A stretch of 29,859 nucleotides of DNA from Chitinophagales bacterium. Its GTDB lineage: Bacteria; Bacteroidota; Bacteroidia; Chitinophagales; Chitinophagaceae. The translations under genes and the position numbers were made by a program. A model generated the notes under the pieces. That model was not told the DNA's origin, did no database searches, and was given only the letters and a program-made list of their open reading frames with translations. Positions 3,738 to 28,604 of the stretch are shown in pieces. The stretch lies in contig JBBSSY010000001.1 in assembly GCA_038241595.1 (NCBI GenBank), positions 1 through 29,859 of the forward strand, read 5' to 3'. How positions within the stretch are numbered: the stretch's first letter is position 1; every line of letters starts with the position of its first letter.

Positions 3738-3746
3738 ACCGGATGC

Positions 3747-3772: not shown

Positions 3773-3799
3773 AATCACAAAATATAAAACTAAACAGCA

Positions 3800-6700
3800 A
3801 TGAGAAAGATAATTACAAGACTTATGCTTTGCATGTTGCTAAGTATATGCATGGCGGTGGCTATGGCCCAGCAAAAAAAGATTACAGGAACCGTCAAAGA
3901 CGATAACGGCAATCCTTTAATCGGCGCAACTTACCATGTAAAGGGTACAAACATCAATGGCGCCACCGATAGTAACGGAAATTTTTCGATAACGGTAAAT
4001 GGGGCAAATGCAGTACTGGAATTCACGACGGTAAACTTTGTCGCTAAAGAAGTACAAGTTGGTAACAGCAACATTTTACATGTGGTTTTATCAGCCAGCA
4101 ACAACAAACTGGACGAGGTAGTGGTTACGGCTTTTGGGGTGGGCAAGCAAAACAAAAAGCTTGGCTATGCCGTCACCACCATAAAGGGAGAAGATATTAC
4201 CCGAACAAATACTGTTAACCCAATTACTGCCTTACAAGGCAAGGTGGCTGGTGTGAATGTAAATGTTATGTCGGCAAGTGGTGTTCAAACATCTCCATTT
4301 ATTCAAATCAGGGGTTCTAAAGTTTTAGGAAAACCCGGCCAAAACTCCAACCAGCCAATTTTTGTGATTGATGGAAACGTATTGGAGAACAACACTTTTG
4401 ATGCGGATAACGCTGATGGCGGTTCGCAATTAAAAAATCTTAATCCGGATGATTATGAAGCCATCACGGTTTTAAAAGGCGCCGCGGCAACATCGGTTTA
4501 TGGTTCGCGTGGCATCAATGGCGCGATAGTAATTACCACAAAAAAGGGGAAAGCGGGCCAGGGTTTGGGCGTTGAATTTAACAGCACTTATTCAAACCAG
4601 CATATATACAAAGCTCCGATGGCTTACCAAAATACCTACGGCCAGGGCAGCTGGTCTGCCGCCGAAGGTAACTTCAGGCCCGACGGTACCGTGATTCAGA
4701 CTATGGGAAGTTGGGGTACGAAAATGGACGGTAGTTTGCACCCGGCTGTGTCTAATTTCGACAAAAAGGTTCCGTATTCACCACAACCCGATAACTGGAA
4801 AGTGTTTTATCAGGATGGAGCCTATATAAATAACAACCTGGCGTTGACAGGTGGTACGGAAAAATTTGGCTTTCGCATGTCGTATTCCAACAACCAGGCA
4901 ACCGGTACCCTGCCCAATAACGCTATGACAAGAAATGCTGTTGATTTAAAGATGAATGGCCAGTTAAATAAAGTGTTTTCAACCGAGTTGGGTGTTTCTT
5001 ATGCAAACACGGTGGCGCGTAACTTTTATTCACAAGGCCGTTACTATTTCGGCGGTGGCCAAAATCTCGGTTTCAATACGTATTATCTGCCGCGTAATAT
5101 AGATACCAAAGACTGGTATGCTACGTACAGGGCTGCAGATAATACTCCGGACTTGATCCATGCTTATGGGAACCTGTCAGCAGTGGTGAACGCATTTTCA
5201 AGATTTGATAAAAATAATTATTACCGTTACGAAAATTCTGTATTGGCCTACACCCAATTAAAAGCGCAGGTAGCTCCCTGGTTGGATTTTTCGGCAAGAG
5301 CCAACGTCAACTATTACAAAATATTTACAGAAGAAAAAAACCTGGGCAATGAGAAAGCTAACCGCGGCGGATATTACAGCGTAGGGGGCAACTATTCAAA
5401 CGATTACACTTTATTGTTCATGGGTCATGCCACCAAAGCGTTCAATGACGATTTTTCTGCTGATTTCAGGGTTATAAATGAAGTATATGGAAACAGGCAG
5501 GGGGAATCGTACAGTGCCAGTTCCAATGGTGGGTTAAGTGTTCCCAACCAGTTTTTTCTTGGCAATTCAGTTAACAACATACAAAACAACATCAAGTACG
5601 GCTACACAAAACCCTCCCGGCTAACCGTTGGTTTAGCAGGTATTTTAAACCTGAACTATAAACGATATCTAAATCTTGAAATCACAGGACGTAACGATTG
5701 GTTAAGTACCCTTACGTATCCCTACGCGGTCATTGGCGGGAATAACAATTATACGGTGTTTTACCCTTCGGTAAATGCTTCCTATTCTTTCGTCGACCAT
5801 TTTGCTGACGATATGCCAACCTGGTTGTCCTCCGGCAGGCTAAGGGCATCTCTTGCCTATGTAGGTAACTCCGGCATTGCCGGCGCTTATGCCACCGGTA
5901 GCGGTTATGTACCTGCCACTACTTACAATCAAAACGGACAATCGGTTGGATTGGCCACTCAATACAGAGCCAACATCAAACCCAATCTTAATCTGAAACC
6001 ACAGGTGCAGCGTTCTATAGAGCTTGGTACCAACTTCGGTTTGTTTAAGGAAAAGGTAAATGTGGATTTTGCATGGTACAAAACCAATACTTTCGACCAG
6101 TTGCTCGAATTGGGTGGTGTACCCGAAACCGGTTACAATACCATGTTTGTAAACGCAGGTAACATTCAAAACAAGGGCTGGGAATTGTTGGTAAATTATT
6201 CGCCCATACGCCAAAAGGATTTTGGTCTTGACCTGTCGGTGAACATGGCAAGCAATAAAAGTAAAATCATTGAATTTGGTAATGGCATTAAGCAATGGGA
6301 GCTGAGCGGCGGTTATGATGGCGCCAATGTATACGCCTATGAGGGCGGTGCCTTCGGAATTCTTACTTCAGAATCATCGGCTTCTGTTAAACACGATTCT
6401 AAAACGGGTTTCCCTTTGGTAACAGTTGGTGGCCGCAATGTAAACACCAATGCGTTGGATAAAAGAGATTTTCAATTATACGAATACGTTTCCAATACAG
6501 ATGCTGACGGCGCTGCACAAATCGGAAAAATTGAACCAAGCCTGACGGGTGGTGTAAGTGCTACGCTACGCTATAAAAACTTCTCCTTGTTTACACAGGT
6601 TGATGGCAGGTTTGGCGGCTGGGTATATTCCGAAGCATTGAACTATGCCATGGCACAGGGAACGCCTGAAGCATCATTGCAATGGCGCGACCAGGAGCAT

Positions 6701-7189
6701 GGTGGCGTTCAACGAATAGACTCATACAACGGTGCAAAAAGATATGACGGCGCCCTGCCAAACGTTGTATTTGCCGAGGGTCAGGTGAGCAAGATACGGC
6801 CAGGTGTCAGTGTTGCGGGAATGACTTTTAAAGAAGCATACGACCAGGGATTGGTGGAACCCTGGAAAGCGTCAGCCTATTATGTTTATTCATTTGGTTT
6901 TGGTACCAACATCAATAGCGTAAACAACATAAGCACCGCCAAAAATTCGTGGGTGATGATGCGTGAGGTGACCTTGGGATACAAACTGCCTGTTGGGGTA
7001 CTCGGTAAAACATTTTTAAGAGGTGCGCGGTTTAGCTTATCAGCCCGCAACATTGGTTACTTGTACAAAACATTGCCAGGCGGTCAAAACCCCGAGGCAC
7101 TGCAAAGTAACGACCCTTTCCGCCCCTACATCACCGGTGGTGTACCCTTTACGCGTAATTACGCCGCAACCATTAACATATCACTCTAA
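3800..7189 (+). CDS. susC: SusC/RagA TonB-dependent transporter (no STN domain)
   Basis: CarboxypepD_reg-like N-domain (ITGTVKDDNGNPLIGAT), LDEVVVTAFG, plug motif NPDDYEAITVLKGAAATSVYGSRGINGAIVITTKKG, beta-barrel C-terminus; adjacent susD. Confidence 0.97.
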   Translation: MRKIITRLMLCMLLSICMAVAMAQQKKITGTVKDDNGNPLIGATYHVKGTNINGATDSNGNFSITVNGANAVLEFTTVNFVAKEVQVGNSNILHVVLSASNNKLDEVVVTAFGVGKQNKKLGYAVTTIKGEDITRTNTVNPITALQGKVAGVNVNVMSASGVQTSPFIQIRGSKVLGKPGQNSNQPIFVIDGNVLENNTFDADNADGGSQLKNLNPDDYEAITVLKGAAATSVYGSRGINGAIVITTKKGKAGQGLGVEFNSTYSNQHIYKAPMAYQNTYGQGSWSAAEGNFRPDGTVIQTMGSWGTKMDGSLHPAVSNFDKKVPYSPQPDNWKVFYQDGAYINNNLALTGGTEKFGFRMSYSNNQATGTLPNNAMTRNAVDLKMNGQLNKVFSTELGVSYANTVARNFYSQGRYYFGGGQNLGFNTYYLPRNIDTKDWYATYRAADNTPDLIHAYGNLSAVVNAFSRFDKNNYYRYENSVLAYTQLKAQVAPWLDFSARANVNYYKIFTEEKNLGNEKANRGGYYSVGGNYSNDYTLLFMGHATKAFNDDFSADFRVINEVYGNRQGESYSASSNGGLSVPNQFFLGNSVNNIQNNIKYGYTKPSRLTVGLAGILNLNYKRYLNLEITGRNDWLSTLTYPYAVIGGNNNYTVFYPSVNASYSFVDHFADDMPTWLSSGRLRASLAYVGNSGIAGAYATGSGYVPATTYNQNGQSVGLATQYRANIKPNLNLKPQVQRSIELGTNFGLFKEKVNVDFAWYKTNTFDQLLELGGVPETGYNTMFVNAGNIQNKGWELLVNYSPIRQKDFGLDLSVNMASNKSKIIEFGNGIKQWELSGGYDGANVYAYEGGAFGILTSESSASVKHDSKTGFPLVTVGGRNVNTNALDKRDFQLYEYVSNTDADGAAQIGKIEPSLTGGVSATLRYKNFSLFTQVDGRFGGWVYSEALNYAMAQGTPEASLQWRDQEHGGVQRIDSYNGAKRYDGALPNVVFAEGQVSKIRPGVSVAGMTFKEAYDQGLVEPWKASAYYVYSFGFGTNINSVNNISTAKNSWVMMREVTLGYKLPVGVLGKTFLRGARFSLSARNIGYLYKTLPGGQNPEALQSNDPFRPYITGGVPFTRNYAATINISL

Positions 7190-7208
7190 TTATTTTCAAT
7201 TTAAGACA

Positions 7209-9032
7209 ATGAAGAATATATATAAATACATCATTGCTTTGCTGGCGGTAGCCTGTTTGTCTCAATCGTGTAAAAAACAAATGATTGAACTCAATACAAA
7301 TCCCAATCTGCTAAACGATGCCGCGCCTGAATATCTTTTTACCGGCGCTACTGCCGACATGGGAGTAACTTCAAGAGATAGAACTTCAAAGAAGTATGCT
7401 ACTACGATGACCTGGATGCAGTACGTGGTACCCGAAGGCACCAGTACAGACGCATTGGTAAAATTTTACTGGAAACCTGGATCGGGACCAACACAGGGCC
7501 CAATTCCCGGTTTTACTTACTACACCGACTATTTCTCTGCTGCGGGCAGGGATATGAACCGGATTATAAATAAGATTGACAATATGAACGACGCCGACAA
7601 GGAAAAATACAAGGGGTTACGTGCCATTTGTCAAACAGTCGACGTTTTCCAGGCCTGGCGGGTAGCCGATATTTACGGCGCCTTACCGTACAAGGAAGCT
7701 TTTTTGCCCGATGAATATTCAATGCCACAGTACGATTATAACTGGGATCTCTACAAAGTTTTTGAAACAAAGCTGAAGGCAGCAGCCACTGTGTTGTCAG
7801 CTTCCGGTTCCGCACAACTTGCTTTAGGTAACCAGGATATGTTTTTTGGTGGTGATTACACTAAATGGCTGGGATTTGCGAATAGCCTGCGCATAAAAAT
7901 TGCACAACGCTTCGAAAAGCGCGATGCCGCACAGCTGACTGCTGTGTTAACTGACATCGCCGGCAATTTTGCCGGTAAAATTATGTCGGCTAATGATGGA
8001 TCCTTTGCAATAAACAATACCCGCGACTGGAACAACAATGTGGATGATATCAACACAATTCTGTTTAGCTACAATGCGGCGTTTCCCTTTGTGCAGCAGC
8101 TAAAAGCTACAAACGACCCGCGTATCAGTTTTATGGTGCGTCAAAACGACTTTGGCACCAATTCAAAACAGTACAGGAGAGTGCAGGATCTGGGTACACC
8201 TGCTTCTAAAGCGGCCTTGTTACTTCCCGAAAACCAGGAGCGTTATGCAGGCAAGCATGCTACGCCTGCTTCGGCCGGCAATACAGACTATGGCACTGCT
8301 GGTGGCAACAGGTACAAAACATTTGCCCTTACCGGTTCTAACGGCAACCAAACGCTGAGCTATCAGTCTGCTATCCAGTCAAGGTTGTTTATAAAGAATG
8401 GTGGTTTTGGTGGATTTAATGCACTGTCATCCCGCGATTTGATGTACGATGATGAAAGCTTTGTGGATGGTTCTACGATTAAGATGAAAACCTATTATAT
8501 CTCGTATCCTGACGTATGTTTCATGATGGCCGAAATTGCTGCCAAAGGTGGCAACGGTTTGGGTAAAACCGCGGAAGCGTGGTACAGGGCCGGGGTCACC
8601 GCATCGTTCGACTTGTACAAGCAAATGGCTGTTGCTACAAATGTACCCGGAGCAACTTCCGTTACAGCGGGCTCATTTGCCACTACCATTCCGTATACCG
8701 GTTTGCCTGGTATATATACACAACAATGGGTAAATAACCTGCTTACCCCCGATGAGGCATGGGCCACCTGGAAACGTACTGGCTATCCTCAATTCACTGA
8801 TGTTCGTTCAACAAGCAATGGACTGATCGGCACAAGCAGCATTGCTTACCTGGAAAATCTTTGGGATGGTGGTGAGAATATGCTAATTACACGCAGAGAT
8901 GCATTGCAAATGACTTCAACGATAAATCAGCCAAATTTTGTTTCAGCGGTTGAAGCGCAAAAAAACAAGGATGCATCCTACGGAGCTTCTTCTACAGATA
9001 CTAAAGGACGCATTTGGTGGGATAAACAATAG
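7209..9032 (+). CDS. susD: SusD/RagB-like outer-membrane lipoprotein (607 aa)
   Basis: ATG at 7209, 19 nt after the susC stop. Lipobox LSQS-C then KKQMIELNTNPN; DIYGALPY, W..FANSLRIKIAQR and EAWATWKRTGYP..RIWWD are SusD-like features. Confidence 0.92.
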   Translation: MKNIYKYIIALLAVACLSQSCKKQMIELNTNPNLLNDAAPEYLFTGATADMGVTSRDRTSKKYATTMTWMQYVVPEGTSTDALVKFYWKPGSGPTQGPIPGFTYYTDYFSAAGRDMNRIINKIDNMNDADKEKYKGLRAICQTVDVFQAWRVADIYGALPYKEAFLPDEYSMPQYDYNWDLYKVFETKLKAAATVLSASGSAQLALGNQDMFFGGDYTKWLGFANSLRIKIAQRFEKRDAAQLTAVLTDIAGNFAGKIMSANDGSFAINNTRDWNNNVDDINTILFSYNAAFPFVQQLKATNDPRISFMVRQNDFGTNSKQYRRVQDLGTPASKAALLLPENQERYAGKHATPASAGNTDYGTAGGNRYKTFALTGSNGNQTLSYQSAIQSRLFIKNGGFGGFNALSSRDLMYDDESFVDGSTIKMKTYYISYPDVCFMMAEIAAKGGNGLGKTAEAWYRAGVTASFDLYKQMAVATNVPGATSVTAGSFATTIPYTGLPGIYTQQWVNNLLTPDEAWATWKRTGYPQFTDVRSTSNGLIGTSSIAYLENLWDGGENMLITRRDALQMTSTINQPNFVSAVEAQKNKDASYGASSTDTKGRIWWDKQ

Positions 9033-17413: not shown

Positions 17414-17457
17414 CCGGATCGGTTCCGCGTTATAATAAGAATTAATAACCGCTTTTT

Positions 17458-18477
17458 CTAGATCGCTTTTTGATAAATGATGAAGGCAGGGGCTATTTCT
17501 TCGGTCATTGCAACATTTTCTTGTGCAGGTAACTTATTGTGCAGCAGGTTCATCATCATATTCATGGCCGTTTTTCCCTGGCGGAATGGATATTGCTCCA
17601 GCGAGGCCATAGGGGGAGAGGCGGTGTACCTGGTTATCGGCAGATTGCCAAAACAGACCAGTCCAATTTCATGATGGTGTTGATCATTTTGCAGGCAATT
17701 CGCTGCATCCATGTGTACATAATCGTTGAAGGAAATGATTACCTGCGGAAGATTTTTCTTTGCCAGCAATAGCTGTACGGCCCCAATATTTCCCTCTTTT
17801 GAGAGATCTGTTGTTTCAACCAACTGCATATTTACTTTCAATTTGTTCTTTGAAAAAGCGTCTATATAACCTTGCAGTCGTTCCTGGCTTGCCAATAGGG
17901 TATCGGGGCCGTTGATCATGGCAATTCGCCTGTAGCCTCTGCCTAGCAGCCAGTTTATCATCATAATTGTTCCTTTGTATACATTGCAATACACCTTGTT
18001 GGCGTTAAATTTAGGAACCCGGTCAAAATAAACAACCGGAATATTATGCTTGCTGAGCGAGGTAAGGTGATCATAATTTCTGGTATGCTTCGACAAAGAA
18101 ATAATTAATCCGTCTATTTGTTGTCTACGCATCGCCTCTACCGCTTTAAGTTCAGTGTCATAATCATCATGGCTTTGGCTAACCAATAGGGTATAGTCAT
18201 TTTCCGTTGCCGCATGCTCGATACCACTAAAAGAATCCGAGAAGAAATCATCTTTTATATTGGGTAAAATCACCCCAACAACGAAAGTTTTTTTGTTTTT
18301 AAAGCAGATTGCCTTCAGGCTGGGCTCATAGTTAAGTTCCAAAGCCAGTTTCTTTACCCTCATTTTGGTTCTTAAACCAATGCGCGGATGATCACTCAAG
18401 GCCCTGGAGACCGTAGATATGGCCACTTTCAGCCTTACGGCGATGTCCTTTATTGTGGCCGGCTGTGCGGTGTACAT
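17458..18477 (-). CDS. LacI family transcriptional regulator
   Basis: HTH TIKDIAVRLKVAISTVSRAL, A..LNYEP hinge, periplasmic-binding-protein-like effector domain (DGLII, VVYFDR, ERLQGY). Confidence 0.95.
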   Translation of the reverse strand: MYTAQPATIKDIAVRLKVAISTVSRALSDHPRIGLRTKMRVKKLALELNYEPSLKAICFKNKKTFVVGVILPNIKDDFFSDSFSGIEHAATENDYTLLVSQSHDDYDTELKAVEAMRRQQIDGLIISLSKHTRNYDHLTSLSKHNIPVVYFDRVPKFNANKVYCNVYKGTIMMINWLLGRGYRRIAMINGPDTLLASQERLQGYIDAFSKNKLKVNMQLVETTDLSKEGNIGAVQLLLAKKNLPQVIISFNDYVHMDAANCLQNDQHHHEIGLVCFGNLPITRYTASPPMASLEQYPFRQGKTAMNMMMNLLHNKLPAQENVAMTEEIAPAFIIYQKAI

Positions 18478-18498
18478 AAGAATAAGTATTTGATAGGC

Positions 18499-19206
18499 CT
18501 ATTTGAATAACCTCGAAAAATGGTTTTCGAGATGGTTTCTAATTCCGTTTCTCAGCATTTCGGCCGAGCCATTCTCGATTATATCAACAATCTCCCGGTG
18601 CGATACAAATCGTCTTTCGGAGACTGGTTTACTTAAAATTCCGCTTGAATGCACATAGTCGAAAACGGGCAGCAACAGCTTCTGAAATTTTTTCATGGTA
18701 CTGTTGCCTGTTATTTCATACAATTTGCCATGAAATTTTATTTCGTGCTCGATCTGAAAAATGTGCCTTTCAGTAGCCTGCGGTTCTGCATCTACTATGA
18801 ATTTCAATGCTGCTATATCCAGTGGCGTCACTCGTTCCATGATAAAATCAGCCATACCGACCTCTAGCGCCAGCCGCATTTCGAAAATTTCCTTGAGCGT
18901 GGAATCATCCAGTATCCTGGGGTTCATGCTTCTTTCCAGTATCGACACCAGATCAGGACTGGTAAGAATGGCGCCCCGTTTCTTTTTTGAATCTATCAGT
19001 CCCATCAGTCTTAACCGAAGCAAGGCTTCTCTGATAACTGTGCGGCTCACTTTAAGTGCATCTGTCAACTCCAGTTCTTTGGGCAGCGAATCACCCGGCT
19101 TGAGTTGTTTCGTTACAAAAAATTCAATCAGTTTAAATTCCACTTTGTCTACCAGGCTACTTTTATCTATTCTTCCGATTTTTTCCGTTAACTGTTCAAT
19201 GTCCAT
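18499..19206 (-). CDS. GntR family (FadR subfamily, FCD domain) transcriptional regulator
   Basis: LKPGDSLPKELELTDALKVSRTVIREAL winged HTH, EIFEMRLALEVG, FHGKLYEITGN. Confidence 0.95.
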   Translation of the reverse strand: MDIEQLTEKIGRIDKSSLVDKVEFKLIEFFVTKQLKPGDSLPKELELTDALKVSRTVIREALLRLRLMGLIDSKKKRGAILTSPDLVSILERSMNPRILDDSTLKEIFEMRLALEVGMADFIMERVTPLDIAALKFIVDAEPQATERHIFQIEHEIKFHGKLYEITGNSTMKKFQKLLLPVFDYVHSSGILSKPVSERRFVSHREIVDIIENGSAEMLRNGIRNHLENHFSRLFK

Positions 19207-19320
19207 ATCAGTACTATGTGGTAAATAATGGGTTTAGCATAATAAAAATATTAATATCTGTTAAGGAAGAATGCCTTAACCACGACAGCTGAAATGCTAC
19301 GCTTAAATGATACGGAATGC

Positions 19321-19328
19321 CAAAGATA
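19321..19328 (-). promoter_or_regulatory. Bacteroidota sigma-A -7 element for the gntR-lacI operon
   Basis: Minus strand TATCTTTG matches TAnnTTTG. TCTG (near the -33 TTTG consensus) lies 20 nt upstream at 19352-19349. Confidence 0.55.
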
Positions 19329-19341
19329 TCAAATTAAATTT

Positions 19342-19358
19342 ATTATGTCAGACATAAT
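19342..19358. promoter_or_regulatory. Palindromic operator ATTATGTC-A-GACATAAT, probable GntR/FadR site
   Basis: Perfect 8-bp arms with a GT-N3-AC core typical of FadR-subfamily operators. Lies between divergent gntR and GH35 and overlaps the -33 region. Confidence 0.65.
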
Positions 19359-19548
19359 TAAATTAAAGTAGTGTCTTTGATATTCGCAACGCGTGAATGA
19401 GGTTCTTTCCGGCATTTTTCTTACATCTATGTTCAGCGGCAAAGGATTTTTTGACAAATGACTCATTTCCGGGGTCATTGATGTATCGTAATCTGTAATT
19501 TCACTAAACGATGTATATAGGTATACTCATTAAGTAATAAACGAACAA

Positions 19549-21363
19549 ATGAAAACAGTCGCAACGGCCATTTTTGTGGTTTTATTTTGTAACGGGTTAG
19601 TCGCTCAAACAGGCAGACATACATTTACCCTGGGCAAAACCGAATTTTTGCTGGATGGCAAGCCGCTGCAGATTATCAGTGGCGAAATGCACCCTGCCCG
19701 TATACCCGAGGCCTATTGGCGTCACCGCATTCAAATGGCAAAGGCCATGGGATGTAATACCATAGCTGCTTATATCTTCTGGAATTATCAGGAGAAAACA
19801 GCAGGCGTTTTTGATTTTAAAACCGGGAATAAGGATGTCGCCAAATTCATCCGTATCTGCCAGGAAGAAGGCATGTGGGTATTGGTTCGTCCCGGACCGT
19901 ATGTATGTGCCGAATGGGATTTTGGCGGACTGCCACCGTACTTGCTTAAAATACCGGATATAAAGATCCGCTGCATGGATACGAGATATATGTCTGCGGC
20001 AACAAGGTATATTGATAGGCTGGCAAAAGAAATTGTGCCATTACAATGTACAAACGGCGGCCCTGTTTTGATGTTGCAGGTCGAAAATGAATACGGCAGT
20101 TTTGGTAATGATAAGGAATACATGGTGGCCTTGAAAAAAGCCTGGATAAAAAATGGAATCAATGTTCCTTTTTATACTTCTGATGGCCCCACGCCTTATA
20201 TGCTGCAAGCAGGTACTGTTGATGGCGCCGCTATTGGTTTAGACAGCGGCAGCGATAGCACAAATTTTGCTACAGCAACAAAATTTAATCCGAATGTGCC
20301 TTCGTTCAGCGGAGAAACTTATCCCGGCTGGTTAACACATTGGGGCGAAAAATGGGCAAGGCCCGATACGAATAGTTTAAAAAAAGAAATCAGTTACTTA
20401 TTACAACATAAAAAATCGTTCAACTTTTATGTGATACATGGAGGTACGAATTTCGGTTTCACTGCAGGAGCCAATGCATTTAGTCCAACCCAATACCAGC
20501 CTGATTTAACCAGTTATGATTACGATGCCCCCATCAATGAACAGGGACGGCCTACAGCAAAGTATTTCATGTTGCGTAACATGATTCAGCAATATGTCCG
20601 GTATAAAATTCCTGACGTTCCTGCACCGATTAAAACAGTTGAGATACCCGCCATCGAAATGAAAAAGTCATACAGTCTTTGGGATTATACACTGCCCGTT
20701 CAAAAATCGCCACAACCATTACCAATAGAAATGTATGGGCAAAACCAGGGATTGATCCTGTATAGGACAAAATTAATTGGCCATAAAAGCGGTGTCTTAA
20801 AAATATGGGAACCCCATGATTATGCCCTGGTCTTTCTAAATGGAAAATTTATTGACACGGTTTACCGTGACGGAGGAAAATGGGAAGTGGTGTTGCCCAA
20901 AACAAATACACCGTTTCCTGAACTGGAAATATTGGTAGAAGGCATGGGGCATATCAACTTTGCACAGTTTATGATTGACCGCAAAGGAATTACGGACCGG
21001 GTTACCTTAAACGGCATGACACTCATGAATTGGGAAACAACTTTGCTGCCGATGGATGAAAAATTTATTGCCTCGCAAAAACCTGCACCGGCAAATAACA
21101 ATAAAGAAAAGCCCTGTACTTTTTTTGAAGGAAGTTTTTCATTAACTGAAACGGGAGATACGTATTTTGATTTGAGCAATTATTTCAAAGGCTTGGTATA
21201 TATAAACGGGCATAACCTCGGCCGGTACTGGAACATAGGGCCGCAACAACGATTGTATTGTCCTGCTTCCTGGTTAAATAAAGGAACAAATAAGTTGCTG
21301 GTTTTCGACTTCCTGCAAACGAACGCCATGCCTATTAAAACAACATCGGATTTAACCAATTAG
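19549..21363 (+). CDS. GH35 beta-galactosidase
   Basis: ISGEMHPARIP, NTIAAYIFWN, RPGPYVCAEWDFGGLP, QVENEYG (acid/base), GETYPGWLTHWG (nucleophile region), HGGTNFG, SYDYDAP, NLGRYWNIGPQQRLY. Confidence 0.96.
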   Translation: MKTVATAIFVVLFCNGLVAQTGRHTFTLGKTEFLLDGKPLQIISGEMHPARIPEAYWRHRIQMAKAMGCNTIAAYIFWNYQEKTAGVFDFKTGNKDVAKFIRICQEEGMWVLVRPGPYVCAEWDFGGLPPYLLKIPDIKIRCMDTRYMSAATRYIDRLAKEIVPLQCTNGGPVLMLQVENEYGSFGNDKEYMVALKKAWIKNGINVPFYTSDGPTPYMLQAGTVDGAAIGLDSGSDSTNFATATKFNPNVPSFSGETYPGWLTHWGEKWARPDTNSLKKEISYLLQHKKSFNFYVIHGGTNFGFTAGANAFSPTQYQPDLTSYDYDAPINEQGRPTAKYFMLRNMIQQYVRYKIPDVPAPIKTVEIPAIEMKKSYSLWDYTLPVQKSPQPLPIEMYGQNQGLILYRTKLIGHKSGVLKIWEPHDYALVFLNGKFIDTVYRDGGKWEVVLPKTNTPFPELEILVEGMGHINFAQFMIDRKGITDRVTLNGMTLMNWETTLLPMDEKFIASQKPAPANNNKEKPCTFFEGSFSLTETGDTYFDLSNYFKGLVYINGHNLGRYWNIGPQQRLYCPASWLNKGTNKLLVFDFLQTNAMPIKTTSDLTN

Positions 21364-21370
21364 GTACATT

Positions 21371-21401
21371 AAAAACAAAAGGTGATACTACTTTTGTATT
21401 T
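21371..21401 (+). terminator. Terminator-like inverted repeat after GH35
   Basis: AAAAACAAAAG-gtgatacta-CTTTTGTATTT; 10 of 11 positions pair. The stem is AT-rich. Confidence 0.4.
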
Positions 21402-21567
21402 ACCGGTAATTTTTGGATGTTTGGTTTAGCAGTATCGTTTTGATTACACCGCATCGTCTACCAACAAAAGTGGATCAGCACCTTGGCACTAATTGCTGGC
21501 AACTGCTAACCACAACGGCCGGAATGGAAAATTCGAATTAAACTTCTATTGACCGGTTTGTAAAAAT

Positions 21568-21583
21568 GTGCAAACGATTGCGC
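21568..21583. promoter_or_regulatory. LacI-type operator GTGCAAACGATTGCGC
   Basis: Pseudo-palindrome with a central CG and the GCAA-ACGA-TTGC layout typical of LacI-family operators; about 95 nt upstream of the sigma relic/susC-2 unit. Confidence 0.55.
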
Positions 21584-21676
21584 GAATTTATTACCCATTT
21601 TCATGCTAATATTGGTAGGCGTTTAACGTGTTGCTTGAAGCGTCTCCTATAACTCAATTTTTTCGATAAAACTCAG

Positions 21677-21903
21677 ATGTCTTTAGATCCATACCATGGT
21701 AAACCAGGATTGTTCATCCCGCTAAAGGCCGGTGACAAATTTGCATTTACCCTATGGTATAACATGTATAGCCAGCCCTTCTACCTGGATCTTCTCAAAT
21801 TGTTGAAGTCCGGACCAGTTCCGGACAAAATTTTACGAGGTATTTCTTATTTATATGGGAAAAACGAAAAGCTGTTTCCATTAGTAAACTCATTCAAACC
21901 TAA
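21677..21903 (+). pseudogene. Truncated, frameshifted ECF sigma-70 factor (N-terminal region-2 relic)
   Basis: MSLDPYHGKPGLFIPLKAGDKFAFTLWYNMYSQPFYLDLLKLLKS..PDKIL resembles Bacteroidota ECF N-termini (L..GD..AF..LY..Y...LY....). It continues after frameshifts as EVFLI (21837-21851) and IWEKRKAVSI (from 21853), matching the QEVFLKIWEKR motif. Confidence 0.7.
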
Positions 21904-21906
21904 GTT

Positions 21907-24900
21907 ATGTATTTAACTGCTTCTGTAGCACAACCATTACTGCCAAGGGGCTTATTTACCAAAACGTTACGGATCATGACATTAATCGTCATGCTGTTTT
22001 TTGCTGCTACCATTCAGTCAAGCGCCAAAGACTATCCACAATTGATTACGGTTTCAGGTAAAAATATTTCGCTGGAAAAAGTTTTTAAACAAATTGAGCG
22101 ACAGAGTAAGTATAGCTTTGTTCATGATGTATTGAGCCTGAAACAGGCGAGGCTAGTAAATGTTAACCTCAATAATGCAACGTTGAATGAGGTGCTTGAG
22201 GTGTGTTTTAAAGATCAACCCCTTAACTACAACGTAGTAGGCAAAACGATTGTGATCAATAAAGCTGATCAAAAACAGGAGGAAAAAATTATCGCTTCAC
22301 CGCCCCCCGTTGAAGTGAGGGGCACGGTAACCAATGAAGCCGGAAAACCGATGCAGAGTGTATCAGTTTCAGTAAAAGGCAGCAATCAAGGAACAAGCAC
22401 GAAAGCAGACGGCAGTTTCTCGATAAATGCCAATGCCGGGGATATGCTGGAATTTACATTCATTGGCTATCAGAAAAGGGAGGTAACAGTAGGACAGAAC
22501 AGTACTCTCTCCGTGGTAATGGAAATAGAGGCGGCCATGGGAAGTGAAATAGTCGTAATTGGCTACGGTTCGGCAAAAAAGAAGACCATTACTGGAGCCG
22601 TGGTTCAGGTCAAAGCTGAAAATCTTAATTTCTCCAATTCTACAACTTTTCAGAGCGCCCTGAATGGAAAAGTGGCCGGGCTACAGATAACCCAAAGTTC
22701 GGGTCAGCCAGGCGCGAGCGTCAGCGTGCAGGTAAGAAGCAATCCTACCGCCAATAGTGCTGGCGTTTTATATGTGTTAGACGGGGTGCCCATTGTTGAT
22801 GCGCCAGCGGCCCCAGGAACAAATTCAAGATATGGCGGTGGGGGCGTTAGCCAATCAATCTTAAATAGTATTAATCCTAACGATATTGAATCAATACAGG
22901 TTTTGAAAGATGCCAGTTCGGCTTCTATTTATGGTGCCAGGGCGGGGAGTAGTGTGATATTGATAACAACAAAAAAGGGGGTTCGTGGAGCTACAACCAT
23001 AACCTATACCGGATCGTACGCTTTCGAAAAAGCCGCAAACGTTTTTCCCCAGTTCAATGCGCTTCAGTATGAAAACATACGCAACAATTACTCCCTTCAA
23101 AAATGGTATAATGATAATAAGATTGGGCCATTTTTTGGCACTGCGGACTCGGCCACCGTTGCCGCAACGAAACCGTATGTACCATATTATACGGCAGCTC
23201 AGTTAGCGGCGACTACCAATCTTCCAGGTGCTTTGAGCCAGGTCTTAAGAAATGGATACGTCAACCAACAGAACATCAGCATGTCGGGCGGCAACGAAAA
23301 AACATCCTACTTTATATCGGGAAATTATTTTGATCAGAAAGGTACGGTAATCGCCACGGGTCTGAAACGGTACAATGGGCTTGTGCGCATAGACGAAAAG
23401 ATATCTTCCAAACTAAAAGCAGGCGTTAATTTGATCGGTTCCAATTCAAATACGCAAAATGCGGTTTATGGTGGAACGTTTGAGAATTCGGGCGTTATTC
23501 CTGCTGCACAAAACTGGCCGGCAAATCAACCGCTTGTAAATCCGGATGGCTCTTATCCAATAAATAATAAATACGCGGCAGCTCCTAACCCGTTGAGTTA
23601 TCAACTTAATAATGACCATACGATGGTGACCCGGTTACTTAGTATGGCTAATTTGGAGTATGAAATTATTGGGGATTTGAAAGCCAAGGCGATATTTAGT
23701 TACGATCAACAGGATGCTAAAAGAAACTATTATTCTCCTTCAAACTTTTTATATAGCTCCCAGGGCACAGCCTCGATCACTGACAATTCTTCCAACACCT
23801 TATTGTTGAATTATACATTGAGTTATCAACACCTCTTTGCGCAAAAACATGCTATTAACGCCGTTATCGGGTACGAATACAATAAAACCAACGGAGAAAA
23901 TGTTGGGGCGGGGAATACGACGTTTTTTTCTGACGTTATCGGGTATTATAACTTAAGCCTGGGACAATCGGCCCGGCCTTCAGTATCTTCTTCCCAATAT
24001 ACCAATAGCTGGGCATCTTATGTGGCAAGGGCCATTTACACGTACGATAACAGGTTATCTGTATCTGCATCTATAAATAGAAATGGAAGTACTGCATTTG
24101 CTTCTGGTAAAAAGTGGGGGTATTTTCCATCTGTAGGTGCAAATTATTTAATTTTTGATGATGGCAATAGTAAGATTAAGGCCATCAATTTCCTGAAATT
24201 ACGTGTAGGGTATGGACAAACGGGAAATCCCCCTTCATCGGGAAGCGCCTTTGCCCGATATGGTCCTAGTTTGAGCCCTACGTTCGGCACCAGTTCAACA
24301 TCCACTGCTATATACCTAACCCAGGCAGCAAACCCCAATTTAAGCTGGGAGACAGTTGCTGAACTGAATGTCGGGTTAGATTATGGATTACTCAACAACC
24401 GGATAACGGGTTCGATAGATGTATTTAATAAAACAATTAAAAACCTGATTACTTATATTCCTTTCCCTACCGATTTTCTTGTGAGCGGCTATACGGGCAA
24501 TGCGGGATCGACAAGAGATAGAGGGTACGAATTTTTGGTGAACACTAAAAATATTGTTCCTGCCAATGACGGTGGGTTTGCCTATAGCTCCACCCTTACT
24601 TTTTCGCACTATTTTGATTTTTGGACACAAAGGTCTCCAGGTGCCCTGGCTACCTTGGCTAAATATGTAGCCGCATCCGGACCACAAGCTGCTTACTATG
24701 GTGTGTATGGGTATCAATCAGCAGGAATATATACCGGCACAAAGGGTGTGATGCCAGGCACTATGCCGGGGATGTTGCCGGGCGGCCTAATTATAAAGGA
24801 TATACACAGCTATGATGCAAATGGCACGTTGCAGGGCCCCGATGGCAGTATAACCGGAGCAGACCAAACATTGATAGCGAATAATGCTCCGAAATTCAAC

Positions 24901-25374
24901 TTTAGTATAGGCAATGATTTTTCTTACCGGAACTTCCAGTTCTCCATATTCTTTGCGGGGCAAAAGCGTACAAAATACGCGTCATGGGGCGGCGCTATAG
25001 CGGGCCTGTATGATCAGGTTGGACAGGGGTGGAATAGTTATTACCCAGAAGTTAATAAGCGGTGGACAACCCTGACACCCAATGCAACCATACCTTCCGG
25101 GCTTGTTGATCCTAAGTATAGCGGTTATCAAAATGGGTCTGATTATTACTATATCGATGCATCATTCCTCCGCTGTCAGGATATTAAGTTAGGCTATAAT
25201 CTACCAGATAAAATATTGGGCGATAGAAAAACATTTAAACGGGTAAATATCTCCCTTGATGTAAATAACGCCTTCATTATCTCGAAATTCCCGTATTTGG
25301 ATCCTCAAATAAACCAGGGCTCTTTTTATCCCCTGAATAGAGGTTTCATAATAGGGGTCAACGCAGGATTTTGA
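21907..25374 (+). CDS. susC: SusC/RagA TonB-dependent transducer with N-terminal STN domain
   Basis: STN: ITVSGKNISLEKVFKQIERQSKYSF..TLNEVLEVCFKDQPLNY. Plug motif INPNDIESIQVLKDASSASIYGARAGSSVILITTKKG; ends GVNAGF. Confidence 0.97.
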   Translation: MYLTASVAQPLLPRGLFTKTLRIMTLIVMLFFAATIQSSAKDYPQLITVSGKNISLEKVFKQIERQSKYSFVHDVLSLKQARLVNVNLNNATLNEVLEVCFKDQPLNYNVVGKTIVINKADQKQEEKIIASPPPVEVRGTVTNEAGKPMQSVSVSVKGSNQGTSTKADGSFSINANAGDMLEFTFIGYQKREVTVGQNSTLSVVMEIEAAMGSEIVVIGYGSAKKKTITGAVVQVKAENLNFSNSTTFQSALNGKVAGLQITQSSGQPGASVSVQVRSNPTANSAGVLYVLDGVPIVDAPAAPGTNSRYGGGGVSQSILNSINPNDIESIQVLKDASSASIYGARAGSSVILITTKKGVRGATTITYTGSYAFEKAANVFPQFNALQYENIRNNYSLQKWYNDNKIGPFFGTADSATVAATKPYVPYYTAAQLAATTNLPGALSQVLRNGYVNQQNISMSGGNEKTSYFISGNYFDQKGTVIATGLKRYNGLVRIDEKISSKLKAGVNLIGSNSNTQNAVYGGTFENSGVIPAAQNWPANQPLVNPDGSYPINNKYAAAPNPLSYQLNNDHTMVTRLLSMANLEYEIIGDLKAKAIFSYDQQDAKRNYYSPSNFLYSSQGTASITDNSSNTLLLNYTLSYQHLFAQKHAINAVIGYEYNKTNGENVGAGNTTFFSDVIGYYNLSLGQSARPSVSSSQYTNSWASYVARAIYTYDNRLSVSASINRNGSTAFASGKKWGYFPSVGANYLIFDDGNSKIKAINFLKLRVGYGQTGNPPSSGSAFARYGPSLSPTFGTSSTSTAIYLTQAANPNLSWETVAELNVGLDYGLLNNRITGSIDVFNKTIKNLITYIPFPTDFLVSGYTGNAGSTRDRGYEFLVNTKNIVPANDGGFAYSSTLTFSHYFDFWTQRSPGALATLAKYVAASGPQAAYYGVYGYQSAGIYTGTKGVMPGTMPGMLPGGLIIKDIHSYDANGTLQGPDGSITGADQTLIANNAPKFNFSIGNDFSYRNFQFSIFFAGQKRTKYASWGGAIAGLYDQVGQGWNSYYPEVNKRWTTLTPNATIPSGLVDPKYSGYQNGSDYYYIDASFLRCQDIKLGYNLPDKILGDRKTFKRVNISLDVNNAFIISKFPYLDPQINQGSFYPLNRGFIIGVNAGF

Positions 25375-25492
25375 GTAAACGTATAAAAAAGAAACATGGA
25401 AATCAGCCATCAGATTTTGCGGCAATGCAGTTTATCGCGATGAACACGCTGTGTTGAATTTCATCTGACAATAAAAAAATTAAAAATCACTA

Positions 25493-27016
25493 ATGGAAAA
25501 GTATTTAAAATATGCAAAAGCAACCAGGGCAATAATAATTGTATCGTTCATTGCCCTAACCATTTTTTCTTCCTGTGAAAAAAAGCTGGATTATGTAACC
25601 TACGGCGTCCTTGACGGCACCGCCTTTTTCAAAACCGAGGCCGATGCCACTGCTGCGGTAAGCGCCATGTACACAGGCATGGTAGCTGGTTGGAGCGGCG
25701 GGTTCGGCGCAGCAGGTAATTTTGGGGGAATGAGCGAGATAGCAACAGACGAAGGCTATTGTAGAAACTACCCCCAGTGGAAAATACTGGCCTATACGCC
25801 CGATTTCGGACCTGTTACACAAACTTATTCGACCCTTATTCCCTATGTTTCGCAGATTACCGTAAATATCAGTAAAATCCAAGACATTACCTTTAAGAAT
25901 ACGGCGTTACAGGCACAGTACATTGCGGAACTTAAAGGGTTAAGGGCACTTTATGGACAAATATTGTATAATATGTATGGCCCGGTACCCATGAGGCTGG
26001 ATGCAAGTTTAATTAATAATTCCGCTGCTCCACCGCTTCCGCGACCAGGCAAAGATGAGATGGTGGCCCAAATAATTAAAGATTATACCGATGCCGCAGC
26101 AGTTTTGCCAAATACATTTACCGGCAGCAATTATGGAAGAATAAGCAAAGCTGCCTGCCTGACGGGTTTAATGAAATTATATATGCATGAAAAGAAATGG
26201 ACTGAGGCGATAGCCGTCGGTACGCAGATAACATCATTGGCGCTTGCTTTAACTCCGGATTATTACGATAATTTTAGCGTAAAGGCAAAAGGAGGCAATT
26301 CCGAAATCATCTTTGTCGTTGTTTGCACCGGCAATAGCGCTCAAAATGATTCTTATACAAACAGGTGGTTAGACCATGCTTTGCCAGCCAATTTCATTGA
26401 TCAAAATGGAAACGCGCTTACCAACTATGGATCATTTTTTGCCATGCCCTGGCCTGCGTATAATAAATTTGACCCTACTGATAAACGTTTAGCGCATTTA
26501 TTAAGGTTTTACCCGGCTAAAGTAAATGGTGTTGTAACCGTATTAGATGCACACAATCAAATTCCCGATGTTGGTGCGGTTCCTGTAAAATATGTACCCG
26601 AAGGGTCAGAGAATTATATCGGGTCTGATAGATACGGATTAGATATTCCTGTTTACAGGTATTCGGATGTGTTGCTTTTACTGGCCGAAGCAATCAATGC
26701 AAGCACCGGACCTACCAGCCAGGCATATACGCTTATAAATACGGTTAGAACAAGAGCCGGTTTGCCAAATCTGTCACCTGGGCTTAGCCAGGCTGATTTT
26801 TTATCAAAGCTGCAGGATGAAAGATTATTCGAACTATGGCACGAAGGAATAAGAAGGGATGATCTGGTAAGATGGGGGCTCTATATACAAGCAGCTAATG
26901 CAAAAGGCGCAGCGCTCGATCCTGTTGCAAATGCATATCTAAACTTATACCCTTTGCCAAGAAGTGTGGTCAATCAAAGCAACGGTATTATTCAGCAAAA
27001 TCCCGGTTATAAGTAG
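25493..27016 (+). CDS. susD: SusD/RagB outer-membrane lipoprotein
   Basis: Lipobox FSS-C; AELKGLRALY, YRYSDVLLLLAEA, INTVRTRAGL, DERLFELWHEGIRRDDLVRWG, QNPGY. Confidence 0.96.
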   Translation: MEKYLKYAKATRAIIIVSFIALTIFSSCEKKLDYVTYGVLDGTAFFKTEADATAAVSAMYTGMVAGWSGGFGAAGNFGGMSEIATDEGYCRNYPQWKILAYTPDFGPVTQTYSTLIPYVSQITVNISKIQDITFKNTALQAQYIAELKGLRALYGQILYNMYGPVPMRLDASLINNSAAPPLPRPGKDEMVAQIIKDYTDAAAVLPNTFTGSNYGRISKAACLTGLMKLYMHEKKWTEAIAVGTQITSLALALTPDYYDNFSVKAKGGNSEIIFVVVCTGNSAQNDSYTNRWLDHALPANFIDQNGNALTNYGSFFAMPWPAYNKFDPTDKRLAHLLRFYPAKVNGVVTVLDAHNQIPDVGAVPVKYVPEGSENYIGSDRYGLDIPVYRYSDVLLLLAEAINASTGPTSQAYTLINTVRTRAGLPNLSPGLSQADFLSKLQDERLFELWHEGIRRDDLVRWGLYIQAANAKGAALDPVANAYLNLYPLPRSVVNQSNGIIQQNPGYK

Positions 27017-27102: not shown

Positions 27103-28604
27103 ATGATTATGAGAAAGCTTGTTAAGGACTTACGTGTTATTTTATTGGTATCCATAGCTTTTTCTTTTACAGGAGCTGTGAGGAAATCTGCTGTAAATGA
27201 TAACCAGGTAATCATTTATCCATCGGAAGATACAACCTCCCTGATAAGGAACCCCGCCATGGGATGGGGATTATATGATGACGCTGACGACAAGGTTACC
27301 ATTGCAGAAAGTTATTGGGTTACACAAGATGAAGCTGCAAAAAAATACGCTTCTCATTTTTACATCCGATGGCGCTGGAGCGATATGGAACCGGAAGAAG
27401 GAAAGTATGCGTGGATATATGATGATAATTTTAAAAAGCTCATAAAAGGCGCTTTGGATAGAAATCTTAAATTGGCCTTCCGTATTTACATAAACGGACA
27501 AGACAATATTAAACCAGCCACTCCAGGTTATGTAAAGGAAGCAGGCGCAAAGGGATATCAAACGCAGAAAAGCGGTGGCGGGTTTAATTGGACTCCCTAT
27601 CCCGACGACCGTGTTTTCCAGGAAAAGTTTTCAAAATTTATCCAGGCCTTTGCCAAAGCGTTTGATGATCCTTCGAGGGTTGATTTTGTGGACGGAAATG
27701 GTTTAGGGCAGTGGGGTGAAGGTGATAATATAAAGACGATTCACAACGATCAGCTTGCTGTGTTTAAATGGATCATAGATCTCTACGGAGATAATTTCAA
27801 GAAAATATTGTTAGTTACCAATCTGGGCAGCCAGGAGGGTTTGGAAGCAGAGAAAAAAATCGCCTACTATGGCGATGATTTCCTGCCGCGAAGGGATGGC
27901 CTGGGGAGCCATTGGTTTAAAGAAGATCAGAAAAAGATGATGGCATCATTATTTCCACGAATGCCGCTTATTGGGGAATCTTGCTATTGGCAAAGCAACA
28001 GCAAGCTTTTTCAAAATGATCCTGCTTTTAAAGCATATGCTCAGCCGGTTACCTGGAAAGATGTTTACCACCTGACTTATAACGATGCGATCGCTTCCCA
28101 TGCCAATTCTTTAGATTTAAGGGAGCCGGACCAGACAAGGCGTTGGATAGATACAGTTCCTGAATTGGTGAAAAAGTTCATGATAAAGGGGGGTACAGGT
28201 TTCACCCCGGCTTTTTATCCATTCCAAACCAAATTAAATCGGGTGGTAGTTTTCACATCGAACACGATTGGAAGAATACGGGAGTTGGAATGTGTCCCAA
28301 TAACAACAAAAGATGGAATTTTAAATATAAAGTAGCCTTTGCATTGATTGAAAAATCGAACATGAAAGTAAAGCAAATGTTTATTGACGAAAAGGCTGAT
28401 CCGTCTCAATGGACAGAAGGATTTGAGTACAAATATTCCTTAAAGGGAAAACTTGCCGCGAACATTGAAGCAGACGATTATATACTGGGTCTGGCGATTG
28501 TTGATACCACCAATAATAAACCAGGTATTCAACTGGCAATTAAGGATCTTCGAAAGCTAAAAAGCGGGTGGTTTGAAATGGGGACAGTTAAAGTATATAG
28601 GTGA
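27103..28604 (+). pseudogene. DUF4832-type putative glycoside hydrolase, split by a 1-nt frameshift at G6 (28188-28193)
   Basis: The 27103 ORF has RNPAMGW, YIRWRWSDMEPEEGKYAW and GQWGE. Adding one G yields KGGYRFHPGFLSIPNQIK..IEHDWKNTGVGMCPNNNKRWNFKYKVAFAL, fusing with ORF 28290-28604 into a 500-aa protein. Confidence 0.75.

Follow-up and report, generated by a model that had tools for sequence, protein, structure and literature searches.

An STN-bearing susC locus in a soil Chitinophagaceae bacterium that has lost its ECF sigma/anti-sigma module at a deletion scar

In the window, by which we mean the whole 29,859-nt stretch of DNA analyzed here, the susC-susD pair of PUL-2 stands directly behind the scar of a deletion that took most of an ECF sigma gene and all of the anti-sigma gene fecR. 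The reading that best explains the locus has four parts: the junction is a deletion scar, signaling by the locus is dead, its transporter genes remain in use, and they would now be transcribed from the promoter of the former sigma gene. We place the probability that all four parts hold jointly at about 0.7. The argument draws on the following features.

17458 to 21363, cassette with LacI (17458-18477) and GntR (18499-19206) on the minus strand and GH35 on the plus strand, assigned by Pfam and unique to this genome at this position
21560 to 21620, plus strand, promoter-proximal block that survives from the former sigma gene, with the invariant 12-mer CAAACGATTGCG at 21571-21582
21621 to 21676, plus strand, former sigma 5' leader, heavily diverged, with the conserved island CTATAACTCAA at 21647-21657
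21677 to 21883, plus strand, ECF sigma pseudogene, codons 1-69 (N-terminus and first part of region 2), from BLASTP and a four-way nucleotide alignment
21677 to 21916, plus strand, present-day 79-codon ORF from translation, ending 7 nt past the susC ATG (a 10-nt overlap when the ATG is counted from its first letter)
21880 to 21883, deletion junction with the 4-nt microhomology ATTA, placed where homology to G011, L073, L074, and L072 ends
21884 to 21906, plus strand, rest of the fecR-susC spacer from a spacer alignment, 27 nt including ATTA versus about 125 nt in relatives
21900 to 21907, minus strand, mutated remnant of a -7 box, TAACTTAG in the window versus TAACTTTG in relatives
21907 to 25374, plus strand, SusC-2, an STN-bearing SusC-type TonB-dependent transducer, intact at 1155 aa (Pfam STN, CarbopepD_reg_2, and Plug)
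25493 to 27016, plus strand, SusD-2, intact at 507 aa (Pfam SusD_RagB)

An ATG at 21677 opens an ECF-sigma-like frame that runs straight into the AAACTCATTCAAACCTAAGTT-ATG leader of susC-2, as the initial annotation had described. The frame-corrected stump peptide was 59% identical over 70 aa to the intact 202-aa sigma of a sister species, G011 (BLASTP E value, 3e-19), and a tblastn search of the 3.7-Mb genome itself with the stump returned the N-termini of ECF sigma paralogs as all five of the best five non-self matches. By both searches, the sigma-70 similarity of the corrected peptide is far above chance; the sigma identity first proposed for this sequence therefore stands, and its length is revised from about 65 codons to 69. 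HMM searches for sigma family models, which had been suggested as a check, gave no Pfam match to the stump peptide and no TIGR02985 match on the contig, in both cases at an E value of ≤10, and NCBIfam returned only two sigma models for the stump, with E values of 0.05 and 0.13. Because these generic HMMs are nearly blind to the stump, its homology is demonstrable only via orthologs. Of the 68 residues that make up region 2 in the G011 protein, the stump covers approximately the first 43, and the family model does not recognize region 2 there. Homology to intact sigmas ends at codon 69-70, and region 4, which spans residues 126-172 of the G011 protein, is absent from the window. Neither region 4 nor fecR was found between GH35 (19549-21363) and susC, in agreement with the earlier claim that both are missing. 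The stump had also been thought to contain two frameshifts, near 21836 and 21852; that is the less parsimonious account of the same net change of -1, as one 1-nt deletion near 21843/21844 (ATA to AT) suffices and leaves a single gap against four intact orthologs. With this deletion and the truncation at 21883, no uninterrupted sigma frame of approximately 190 to 200 codons is left.

Seven orthologous loci (G011, L072, L073, L074, L075, L076, and L077) were compared with the window. Close relatives of SusC-2 were found via protein search; a scan of genome contigs gave none, and a scan of metagenome contigs (two-sequence alignment) gave only sequences that were 25 to 40% identical. The order sigma-FecR-STN-SusC-SusD is present in all seven orthologous loci, with intact sigma (194 to 202 aa) and FecR (384 to 416 aa) genes, and in four other genera, the closest homologs with an STN domain likewise have both sigma and FecR. 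Window positions 21416-21883 align to G011 L009:11689-12153, and positions 21880-27015 align to L009:14009-19148. The breakpoint is common to G011, L073, and L074, with the left homology stopping at 21883 and the right homology beginning at 21880; against L072, the break falls at 21879/21880. Relative to the orthologous loci, the homology of the window skips about 1,859 bp at this one junction. Because homology breaks at a single point, 21880-21883, we read the junction as the scar of a single deletion. By this alignment, a segment of about 1,859 bp between two copies of ATTA was lost; it held sigma codons 70-202, fecR in its entirety, and 98 nt of the 125-nt spacer between fecR and susC. The initial annotation had proposed the deletion of a cell-surface signaling module and an alignment to sister genomes to look for the intact gene order; the seven intact loci and the jump of about 1.86 kb at one junction bear the proposal out.

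The FecR model PF04773 has no match on the contig, and the junction lies only 23 nt from the susC ATG. No ortholog of the lost fecR was found anywhere in the assembly, in which the best paralogs are 41 to 50% identical; this genome is 86% complete, and so a relocated copy of sigma or fecR elsewhere is possible. The other five STN-SusC genes of the genome all have a FecR match approximately 0.7 to 1 kb upstream, and SusC-2 is without one.

The same deletion would have removed a probable antisense RNA. In the relatives, the minus strand carries a perfect -7 box, TAACTTTG, that overlaps the susC ATG, and about 110 nt beyond the box lies a strong antisense terminator consisting of a 10-bp stem and then a T-run, with compensatory changes at 6 of the 10 pairs. 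These features make it probable that the spacer of the relatives encodes a DonS-like antisense RNA opposite the 5' end of susC. An Rfam search of the region and of the G011 spacer found nothing credible. In the window, the body and terminator of this RNA are deleted and the box is mutated to TAACTTAG; CAAAGTTATG is invariant in five relatives, and the T at 21901 occurs in the window alone.

Upstream of the stump, the promoter-proximal block has been retained. Only 4 changes in the 61 nt from 21560 to 21620 are private to the window, whereas the 56 nt that follow have 16 (Fisher p, 0.0025). Those 56 nt are the former sigma leader, in which G011 has 4 private substitutions and L072 has 2. The 12-mer CAAACGATTGCG does not vary among the five upstream regions that were aligned. 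Judging from this pattern, susC-susD are most likely now transcribed from the former sigma promoter (21560-21620) via a dead leader and stump of approximately 290 nt, possibly with some read-through from GH35. Expression of the pair would then be independent of surface sensing by the STN domain. It would be set by factors that act at the sigma promoter, one candidate being a LacI/GalR-type repressor at the invariant palindrome. Anti-sigma gene disruptions in B. thetaiotaomicron are polar on the downstream susC, which indicates cotranscription in such loci, and autoregulation of ECF sigmas is documented in that species (PMC2709373). If the retained promoter was autoregulated by the lost sigma, it would need another sigma. 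A by-eye scan of 21416-21676 gave no convincing match to a Bacteroidetes -33/-7 pair or an ECF-type -35/-10 pair, and no stable hairpin was found between the GH35 stop codon and susC (fold z-scores, about -0.5). Queries for RNA data sets listed none with a match.

In GCAAACGATTGC, which is invariant in five relatives, 5 of 6 positions pair around a CG center. We liken the 12-mer palindrome to the LacI/GalR operator consensus, and it is a candidate operator on this basis. The palindrome is present in the sigma promoter of all relatives and is thus ancestral, not a novelty of this genome. Consensus-like LacI/GalR sites in the window are not more numerous than expected by chance. Variants of the 12-mer are enriched genome-wide relative to a reversed control. 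We rejected the idea of a widespread operator: most copies are in coding DNA, and none of the intergenic copies examined in G011 has a sugar or LacI gene nearby. The other genomic copies showed no link to a LacI regulon. Three other FecR-linked sigma genes of this genome also have the shorter motif ACGATTG upstream, although at a different distance, and nearly all G011 sigma genes lack it; it is a doubtful candidate for a shared sigma-promoter motif.

It is possible, if doubtful, that susC-susD are transcribed mainly by read-through from GH35 and that PUL-2 now answers to the LacI and/or GntR regulator that came with GH35. The cassette occupies this position in this genome only, relatives having GH20-type or GH109 genes there instead; susC and GH35 lie on the same strand, and the 313 nt after GH35 contain no strong terminator. 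However, the conservation of the sigma-promoter block suggests that this block is the element in use, the divergent region between LacI/GntR and GH35 is without the 12-mer or a similar operator, and the regulator acting on GH35 is itself a candidate only. We consider unlikely a more elaborate scenario, in which one microhomology deletion took the ECF sigma, the anti-sigma, and the DonS-like RNA and fused susC-susD to a sigma promoter with an ancestral LacI/GalR-type operator beside the new LacI-GntR-GH35 cassette, the resulting switch from surface glycan sensing to a cytoplasmic repressor being kept by selection.

The STN signaling domain of SusC-2 is still present, as had been stated at the outset. 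Pfam places it at approximately residues 46-130 (22042-22296), N-terminal to CarbopepD_reg_2 (50.8 bits) and Plug (52.7 bits), with a score of 35.4 bits versus a cutoff of 28.4; the match begins at model position 11 in the window and at position 1 in the ortholog. The omega value of the STN region is 0.19 in the window versus 0.21 to 0.30 in the intact lineages. There is no measurable relaxation in these values, which would also fit a signaling domain that still works. A relative-rate test with distant outgroups gave no signal for the STN domain (4 changes versus 3). Measured against close relatives, the domain has 12 private nonsynonymous changes, versus 2, 1, and 0 (Fisher p, 8e-6). We rejected relaxation as the meaning of this excess, given the omega values of 0.2 to 0.3 in intact lineages and 0.19 in the window. 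The excess is further discounted because the 5' end of susC is unusually similar among the three close relatives (dS, 0.12, compared with a barrel value of 0.50), which probably reflects recombination between these relatives. With sigma and anti-sigma gone from the locus, we infer that the trans-envelope signaling loop of PUL-2 is dead.

If the loop had instead been rerouted, the STN domain would signal through an unlinked paralogous FecR/ECF sigma pair that activates PUL-2 in trans. We judge this improbable. The STN reading frame is intact, its omega of 0.19 is on par with that of the intact lineages, at least eight FecR genes are present in the genome, on contigs C232, C134, C297, and C96 among others, with four of the eight or more being 41 to 50% identical to the lost one, and ECF sigma regulons of B. 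thetaiotaomicron include unlinked PULs (PMC2709373). All of this is consistent with rerouting, but the window STN has drifted from every paralogous STN (identical positions, 36 versus 43 to 44, 39 versus 43, and so on), and it carries Y73H at a position where Tyr is kept by two orthologs and by 5/5 paralogs in the alignment. In addition, its Pfam match is without model positions 1-10, which the ortholog keeps, and the spacer, a possible seat of a sigma-dependent susC promoter, is mostly gone. We found no support for the earlier suggestion that SusC-2 is cross-wired to another FecR.

The stump and the transporter genes have evolved differently on the window's branch, which is terminal in the SusC tree and sister to L072. 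The stump acquired 29 private changes on this branch, versus 2, 9, and 6 in relatives (pN/pS, 0.61), and its nucleotide identity to the intact orthologs is 74 to 76%, compared with 83 to 90% among the orthologs themselves. The ratio of nonsynonymous to synonymous changes on the branch is 20:9 in the stump versus 18:89 in SusC codons 131-890 (Fisher p, 1.7e-7), and the omega of the same stump codons among intact sigmas is 0.16 to 0.19. By these measures, the stump is evolving almost freely, and its pN/pS suggests that it has been dead for about half of the terminal branch. A calibration with the first 70 residues of other sigma ortholog pairs, in which five of six pairs are 79 to 87% identical and one, possibly nonorthologous, is 59% identical, supports this weakly. 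We rejected import of the stump from a divergent donor, as private synonymous divergence is roughly flat across the stump and SusC (0.15 to 0.29).

SusC-2 is 87 to 93% identical to its orthologs. Its private changes are 17 synonymous and 1 nonsynonymous in the plug and 54 and 11 in the barrel, for 71 and 12 together, and the polarized pN/pS of SusD-2 on the window's branch is 0.14 (intact lineages, 0.08 to 0.22); like all of the selection estimates given here, these are whole-branch averages that include the time before the deletion. Purifying selection thus kept SusC and SusD strongly constrained along the very branch that saw the stump decay, from which we infer that the transporter genes are still used.

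These figures make it quite improbable that PUL-2, its activator gone, is no longer expressed and is turning into pseudogenes. The sigma that is required for activation in model systems is dead, and both the antisense -7 box and susC leader codons 1-45 are rich in private changes. Immediately after susD, the DUF4832 gene is interrupted by loss of 1 nt from a G6 run at 28188-28193, which could mark the onset of locus decay, but a homopolymer frameshift of this kind may be an assembly error. Moreover, SusC (1155 aa) and SusD (507 aa) are both intact; on the branch along which the 204-nt stump accumulated 29 changes, the plug and barrel gained 12 nonsynonymous versus 71 synonymous changes, and the SusD value is in line with those of the intact lineages. 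The silent PUL-2 that had been listed among the outcomes is thus disfavored by purifying selection on SusC and SusD, whereas constitutive expression or LacI-type control, also on that list, may apply.

Finally, it is highly improbable that the junction is a misassembly or strain chimera in this fragmented metagenome-assembled genome (633 contigs, 86% complete): Logan contigs break at 21504, and the best-matching run, X1, may be the source sample of the genome and hence not independent, but a Logan contig from this soil run covers 21505-22027 across the junction with one mismatch and no gap, a separate Logan contig (21300-21503) spans the point near 21405 where homology starts, repeats flanking the junction are ≤4 nt, the fecR ortholog is missing from the assembly, and the frameshift and 29 lineage-specific substitutions give the stump a decay history of its own that cannot arise by assembly collapse.

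PULs belong to several regulatory classes, including hybrid two-component systems, SusR, ECF sigma/anti-sigma pairs, and others, and moves of a PUL between classes are rarely seen directly. The assets of this case are an exact breakpoint, close intact orthologs, a roughly datable stump, and evidence of structural genes outliving their regulator. It offers a natural test of STN-SusC function without a partner, of the fate of a partnerless STN domain, and of a sigma promoter taking over an operon, and the comparison points to DonS-like antisense RNAs beyond gut Bacteroides. Its scope is one lineage in a fragmented metagenome-assembled genome. The case is informative rather than surprising, a modest and well-documented piece of regulatory evolution.

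In the literature on orphan TonB-dependent transducers, we found nothing directly relevant. In the E. coli FecA-FecR-FecI system for ferric citrate signaling, the STN domain of the transporter contacts FecR, and FecR controls the ECF sigma. The ancestral locus had the same three-part logic with a glycan instead of iron as cargo, and the window keeps only the STN transporter. The trans-envelope PULs of B. thetaiotaomicron (Martens et al. 2009, PMC2709373) have the same co-oriented ECF sigma, FecR-type anti-sigma, SusC with N-terminal signaling domain, and SusD as all seven orthologous loci. In contrast, the window has only a 69-codon sigma pseudogene and no anti-sigma, leaving the switch inoperable, and the host is a soil Chitinophagaceae bacterium rather than a gut Bacteroides. 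The DonS family, as summarized in PMC7366714 from Cao et al. 2016, consists of cis-antisense RNAs of 78 to 128 nt opposite susC genes. The RNA predicted in the relatives matches this family in size and orientation; it is predicted here from sequence alone and in a different Bacteroidota family.

Within the same genus, the STN-SusC genes at G011:C15:27368-30709 and G007:C251 are also without an intact FecR directly upstream. Remodeled sigma/anti-sigma modules are recurrent in this genus. The G011:C15 case has no recognizable relic and the G007:C251 case has only a C-terminal FecR fragment, whereas the window alone combines a datable stump with intact orthologs that define the breakpoint.

The genome is in 633 contigs and 86% complete, and the window is one entire 29.9-kb contig. 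Pfam annotation gave the following gene order.

ends 17413, first PUL: sulfatases, SusC without STN, SusD, fucosidase, PNGase-like gene, GH2, GH20
17458-18477, minus, LacI
18499-19206, minus, GntR
19549-21363, plus, GH35
spacer of 313 nt between GH35 and the sigma stump
21907-25374, STN-bearing SusC
25493-27016, SusD
downstream of SusD, DUF4832-type gene, then GH31

Compared with relatives, the LacI-GntR-GH35 cassette is at this position in the window genome only. At 17415-21405 it takes the place of GH109/GH20-type genes that in relatives fill the interval from the first PUL to sigma, and this region is a rearrangement hotspot. In G006, another genome of the genus, a GH35 of 90% identity has the GH31 ortholog as its immediate downstream neighbour, SusC and SusD being absent from between them (L065). 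The DUF4832-type gene (27103-28604) is broken at the G6 homopolymer 28188-28193, where 1 nt is missing relative to an unbroken, 77% identical 499-aa homolog in L077, leaving ORFs of 410 and 104 aa; the break is either a true frameshift or an assembly error. Two highly different alleles of this gene occur among relatives, the window's being ~37% identical to those of G011, L072, and L076. It adjoins GH31 in the window and L072; in G011 an IS1595-family transposase and two unrelated genes separate the two (L064:3227-3907). In L073, one of the closest Logan contigs, the GH20 upstream of sigma is called in two parts of 144 and 623 aa (1485-3787) and the SusC ortholog ends at 891 aa (6001-8676), possibly through frameshifts or assembly errors in that record.

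Translated from the ATG at 21677, the frame gives a product like the N-terminal part of ECF sigma factors from Bacteroidota, as the initial annotation had proposed. A Pfam search with the stump peptide gave no match, and NCBIfam returned two sigma models weakly (E 0.05 and 0.13); the sigma similarity held up through homologs instead. The best five non-self tblastn matches in its own genome are all N-termini of ECF sigma paralogs, and over 70 residues the peptide shares 59% identity (E 3e-19) with the intact 202-aa sigma of the sister species G011 (Sigma70_r2, residues 27-94; Sigma70_r4_2, residues 126-172). These matches identify the stump as sigma codons 1-69. The two frameshifts suggested earlier are unnecessary: in alignment with four intact orthologs, one gap of 1 nt near 21843/21844, where relatives read ILQDIFLIIWEKR, is enough to restore the frame. 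The present DNA holds a 79-codon ORF (21677-21916) overlapping the susC ATG.

The order in G011 is GH20, sigma (202 aa), FecR (410 aa), STN-SusC (1155 aa, 87% identical), and SusD. Window 21416-21883 aligns with L009:11689-12153 of that species, and 21880-27015 with L009:14009-19148. Because the two alignments overlap in ATTA, with ~1,859 bp absent from the window, they support a deletion of about that length with 4-nt microhomology at the joint. A protein search found closer SusC relatives at L072, L073, and L074 (92-93% identity), where homology to the window breaks at the identical point, and others at L075-L077 (79-82%). Sigma and FecR are in place at all of these loci, and likewise precede STN-bearing homologs of 44-49% identity in four other genera. 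Lost with it were sigma codons 70-202 and the spacer behind them, the fecR gene, and 98 nt of the fecR-susC spacer, which is 125 nt in full. The proposed loss of the signalling module is thus supported by the intact sigma-FecR-SusC order in G011 and L072-L077. An assembly collapse, the alternative, fares poorly. In soil run X1, one Logan contig extends over 21505-22027 without a gap, with a single mismatch and at depth ~8, and a second (21300-21503) spans the left end of the region common to relatives; since X1 is perhaps the source sample of the genome, these contigs test the assembly and are not independent biology. The lost fecR and sigma 3' part have no ortholog anywhere in the assembly (nearest FecR paralogs, 41-50% identical), and a collapse cannot produce the stump's private history of decay.

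The stump is 74-76% identical in nucleotide sequence to three intact orthologs, which share 83-90% among themselves; the window SusC, a terminal branch sister to L072 in the SusC tree, is 86.5-91% identical to the same three. Changes private to the window's branch number 29 in 204 stump sites, against 2, 9, and 6 in relatives. Twenty are non-synonymous and nine synonymous (pN/pS 0.61), compared with an omega of 0.16-0.19 for the same codons of intact sigmas. A crude mixture (omega 0.18 before inactivation, 1.0 after) suggests that the stump was inactivated about midway along the branch, and over the time since then neutral transporters would be expected to reach a ratio near 0.5. Non-synonymous and synonymous changes on the window branch are 18 and 89 in SusC codons 131-890 (Fisher p 1.7e-7 versus the stump), 1 and 17 in the plug, and 11 and 54 in the barrel; SusD has a pN/pS of 0.14 (intact lineages, 0.08-0.22). 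Because these ratios fall below the neutral expectation, we conclude that both transporters stayed useful after regulator loss. Such constraint argues against a silent locus, one of the outcomes initially envisaged.

Another, cross-wiring to a different FecR, finds no support in the STN, which has moved further from every paralogous STN and nearer to none. This drift and Y73H, the loss of a Tyr kept by both orthologs and all five paralogs aligned, are faint hints of STN decay. The window STN has 12 private non-synonymous changes, clustered at residues 70-89, versus 2, 1, and 0 in relatives. Relaxed selection as a reading of this count failed calibration (omega 0.21-0.30 in intact lineages, 0.19 in the window) and was rejected because the STN is the quickest-evolving part of these SusC proteins in intact lineages as well and the 5' ends of three close relatives are unusually alike. 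Across the first 660 nt of susC (21907-22566; leader, STN, CarboxypepD_reg), dS is ~0.12-0.16 among G011, L072, and L073, compared with ~0.5 in the barrel, suggesting that the signalling end recombined recently between these three, the window lineage not included.

We infer the present-day control of susC from upstream conservation. Changes private to the window number 4 across the 61 nt of the block 21560-21620 and 16 across the 56 nt of former sigma leader that follow (p 0.0025; stump rate for comparison, 29 in 204). Within the block, the 12-mer CAAACGATTGCG (21571-21582) is invariant in five aligned upstream sequences. A conserved block beside a decaying gene suggests that this promoter-proximal stretch may still be in use. 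The simplest reading would be that the old sigma promoter region now serves susC, to which we assign a probability of about 0.5. Its main rival is read-through from GH35, also possible since no stable hairpin was found between GH35 and susC. The 12-mer is a palindrome at 5/6 positions with centre CG, and may resemble LacI/GalR-family operators. Being ancestral, it did not arrive with the neighbouring LacI gene; LacI/GalR consensus-like sites in the window do not exceed chance, and other genomic copies of the 12-mer lie for the most part in coding DNA or have no relation to sugar genes. A heptamer, ACGATT[GT], lies 82-89 nt ahead of where the TIGR02985 match begins in three further FecR-linked sigma genes of this genome (contigs C421, C297, and C128) and within the G011 fecR-susC spacer, and is missing upstream of nearly all G011 sigma genes.

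The deletion also touched a candidate antisense RNA, located in relatives as follows.

L009:13912-14036 (G011), minus, fecR-susC spacer
L072:2880-3003, minus, fecR-susC spacer
L073:5876-6000, minus, fecR-susC spacer
L075 and L077, minus, fecR-susC spacer

On this strand, all aligned relatives have a perfect Bacteroidetes -7 box, TAACTTTG, over the susC ATG and, ~110 nt beyond it, a GC-rich hairpin of 10 bp with a T-run behind it, right next to the fecR stop. Between ingroup and outgroups, 6 of the 10 stem pairs of this strong predicted terminator show compensatory changes, altered on both sides. The relatives' spacer thus appears to code for a ~110-nt DonS-like antisense RNA. The window has lost the terminator and body of the predicted RNA and alone carries a -7 box substitution, at 21901.

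All five other STN-SusC genes of the window genome have FecR ~0.7-1 kb upstream, as do 15 of 18 across three complete genomes from the same genus. The remaining three (one without FecR or relic, one where an additional gene separates FecR from SusC, one with a FecR C-terminal fragment only) point to recurrent remodelling of sigma/FecR/STN-SusC modules. At L085 (G011:C15:27368-30709), an STN-SusC has no FecR or sigma remnant upstream; at L086 (G007:C251), one follows a 118-aa FecR C-terminus fragment, with an 803-aa gene between fragment and full FecR. What sets the window case apart is that its event is resolved to the single base, with measurable consequences for selection. The stump is confirmed and its reading as the product of a deletion supported.

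To our knowledge, the DonS family has been described in gut Bacteroides only. Its members, antisense RNAs of 78-128 nt, repress susC genes in Bacteroides, and the relatives' spacer element, here a prediction, fits that family (PMC7366714). The locus as a whole is a variant of a known system type, not a new type.
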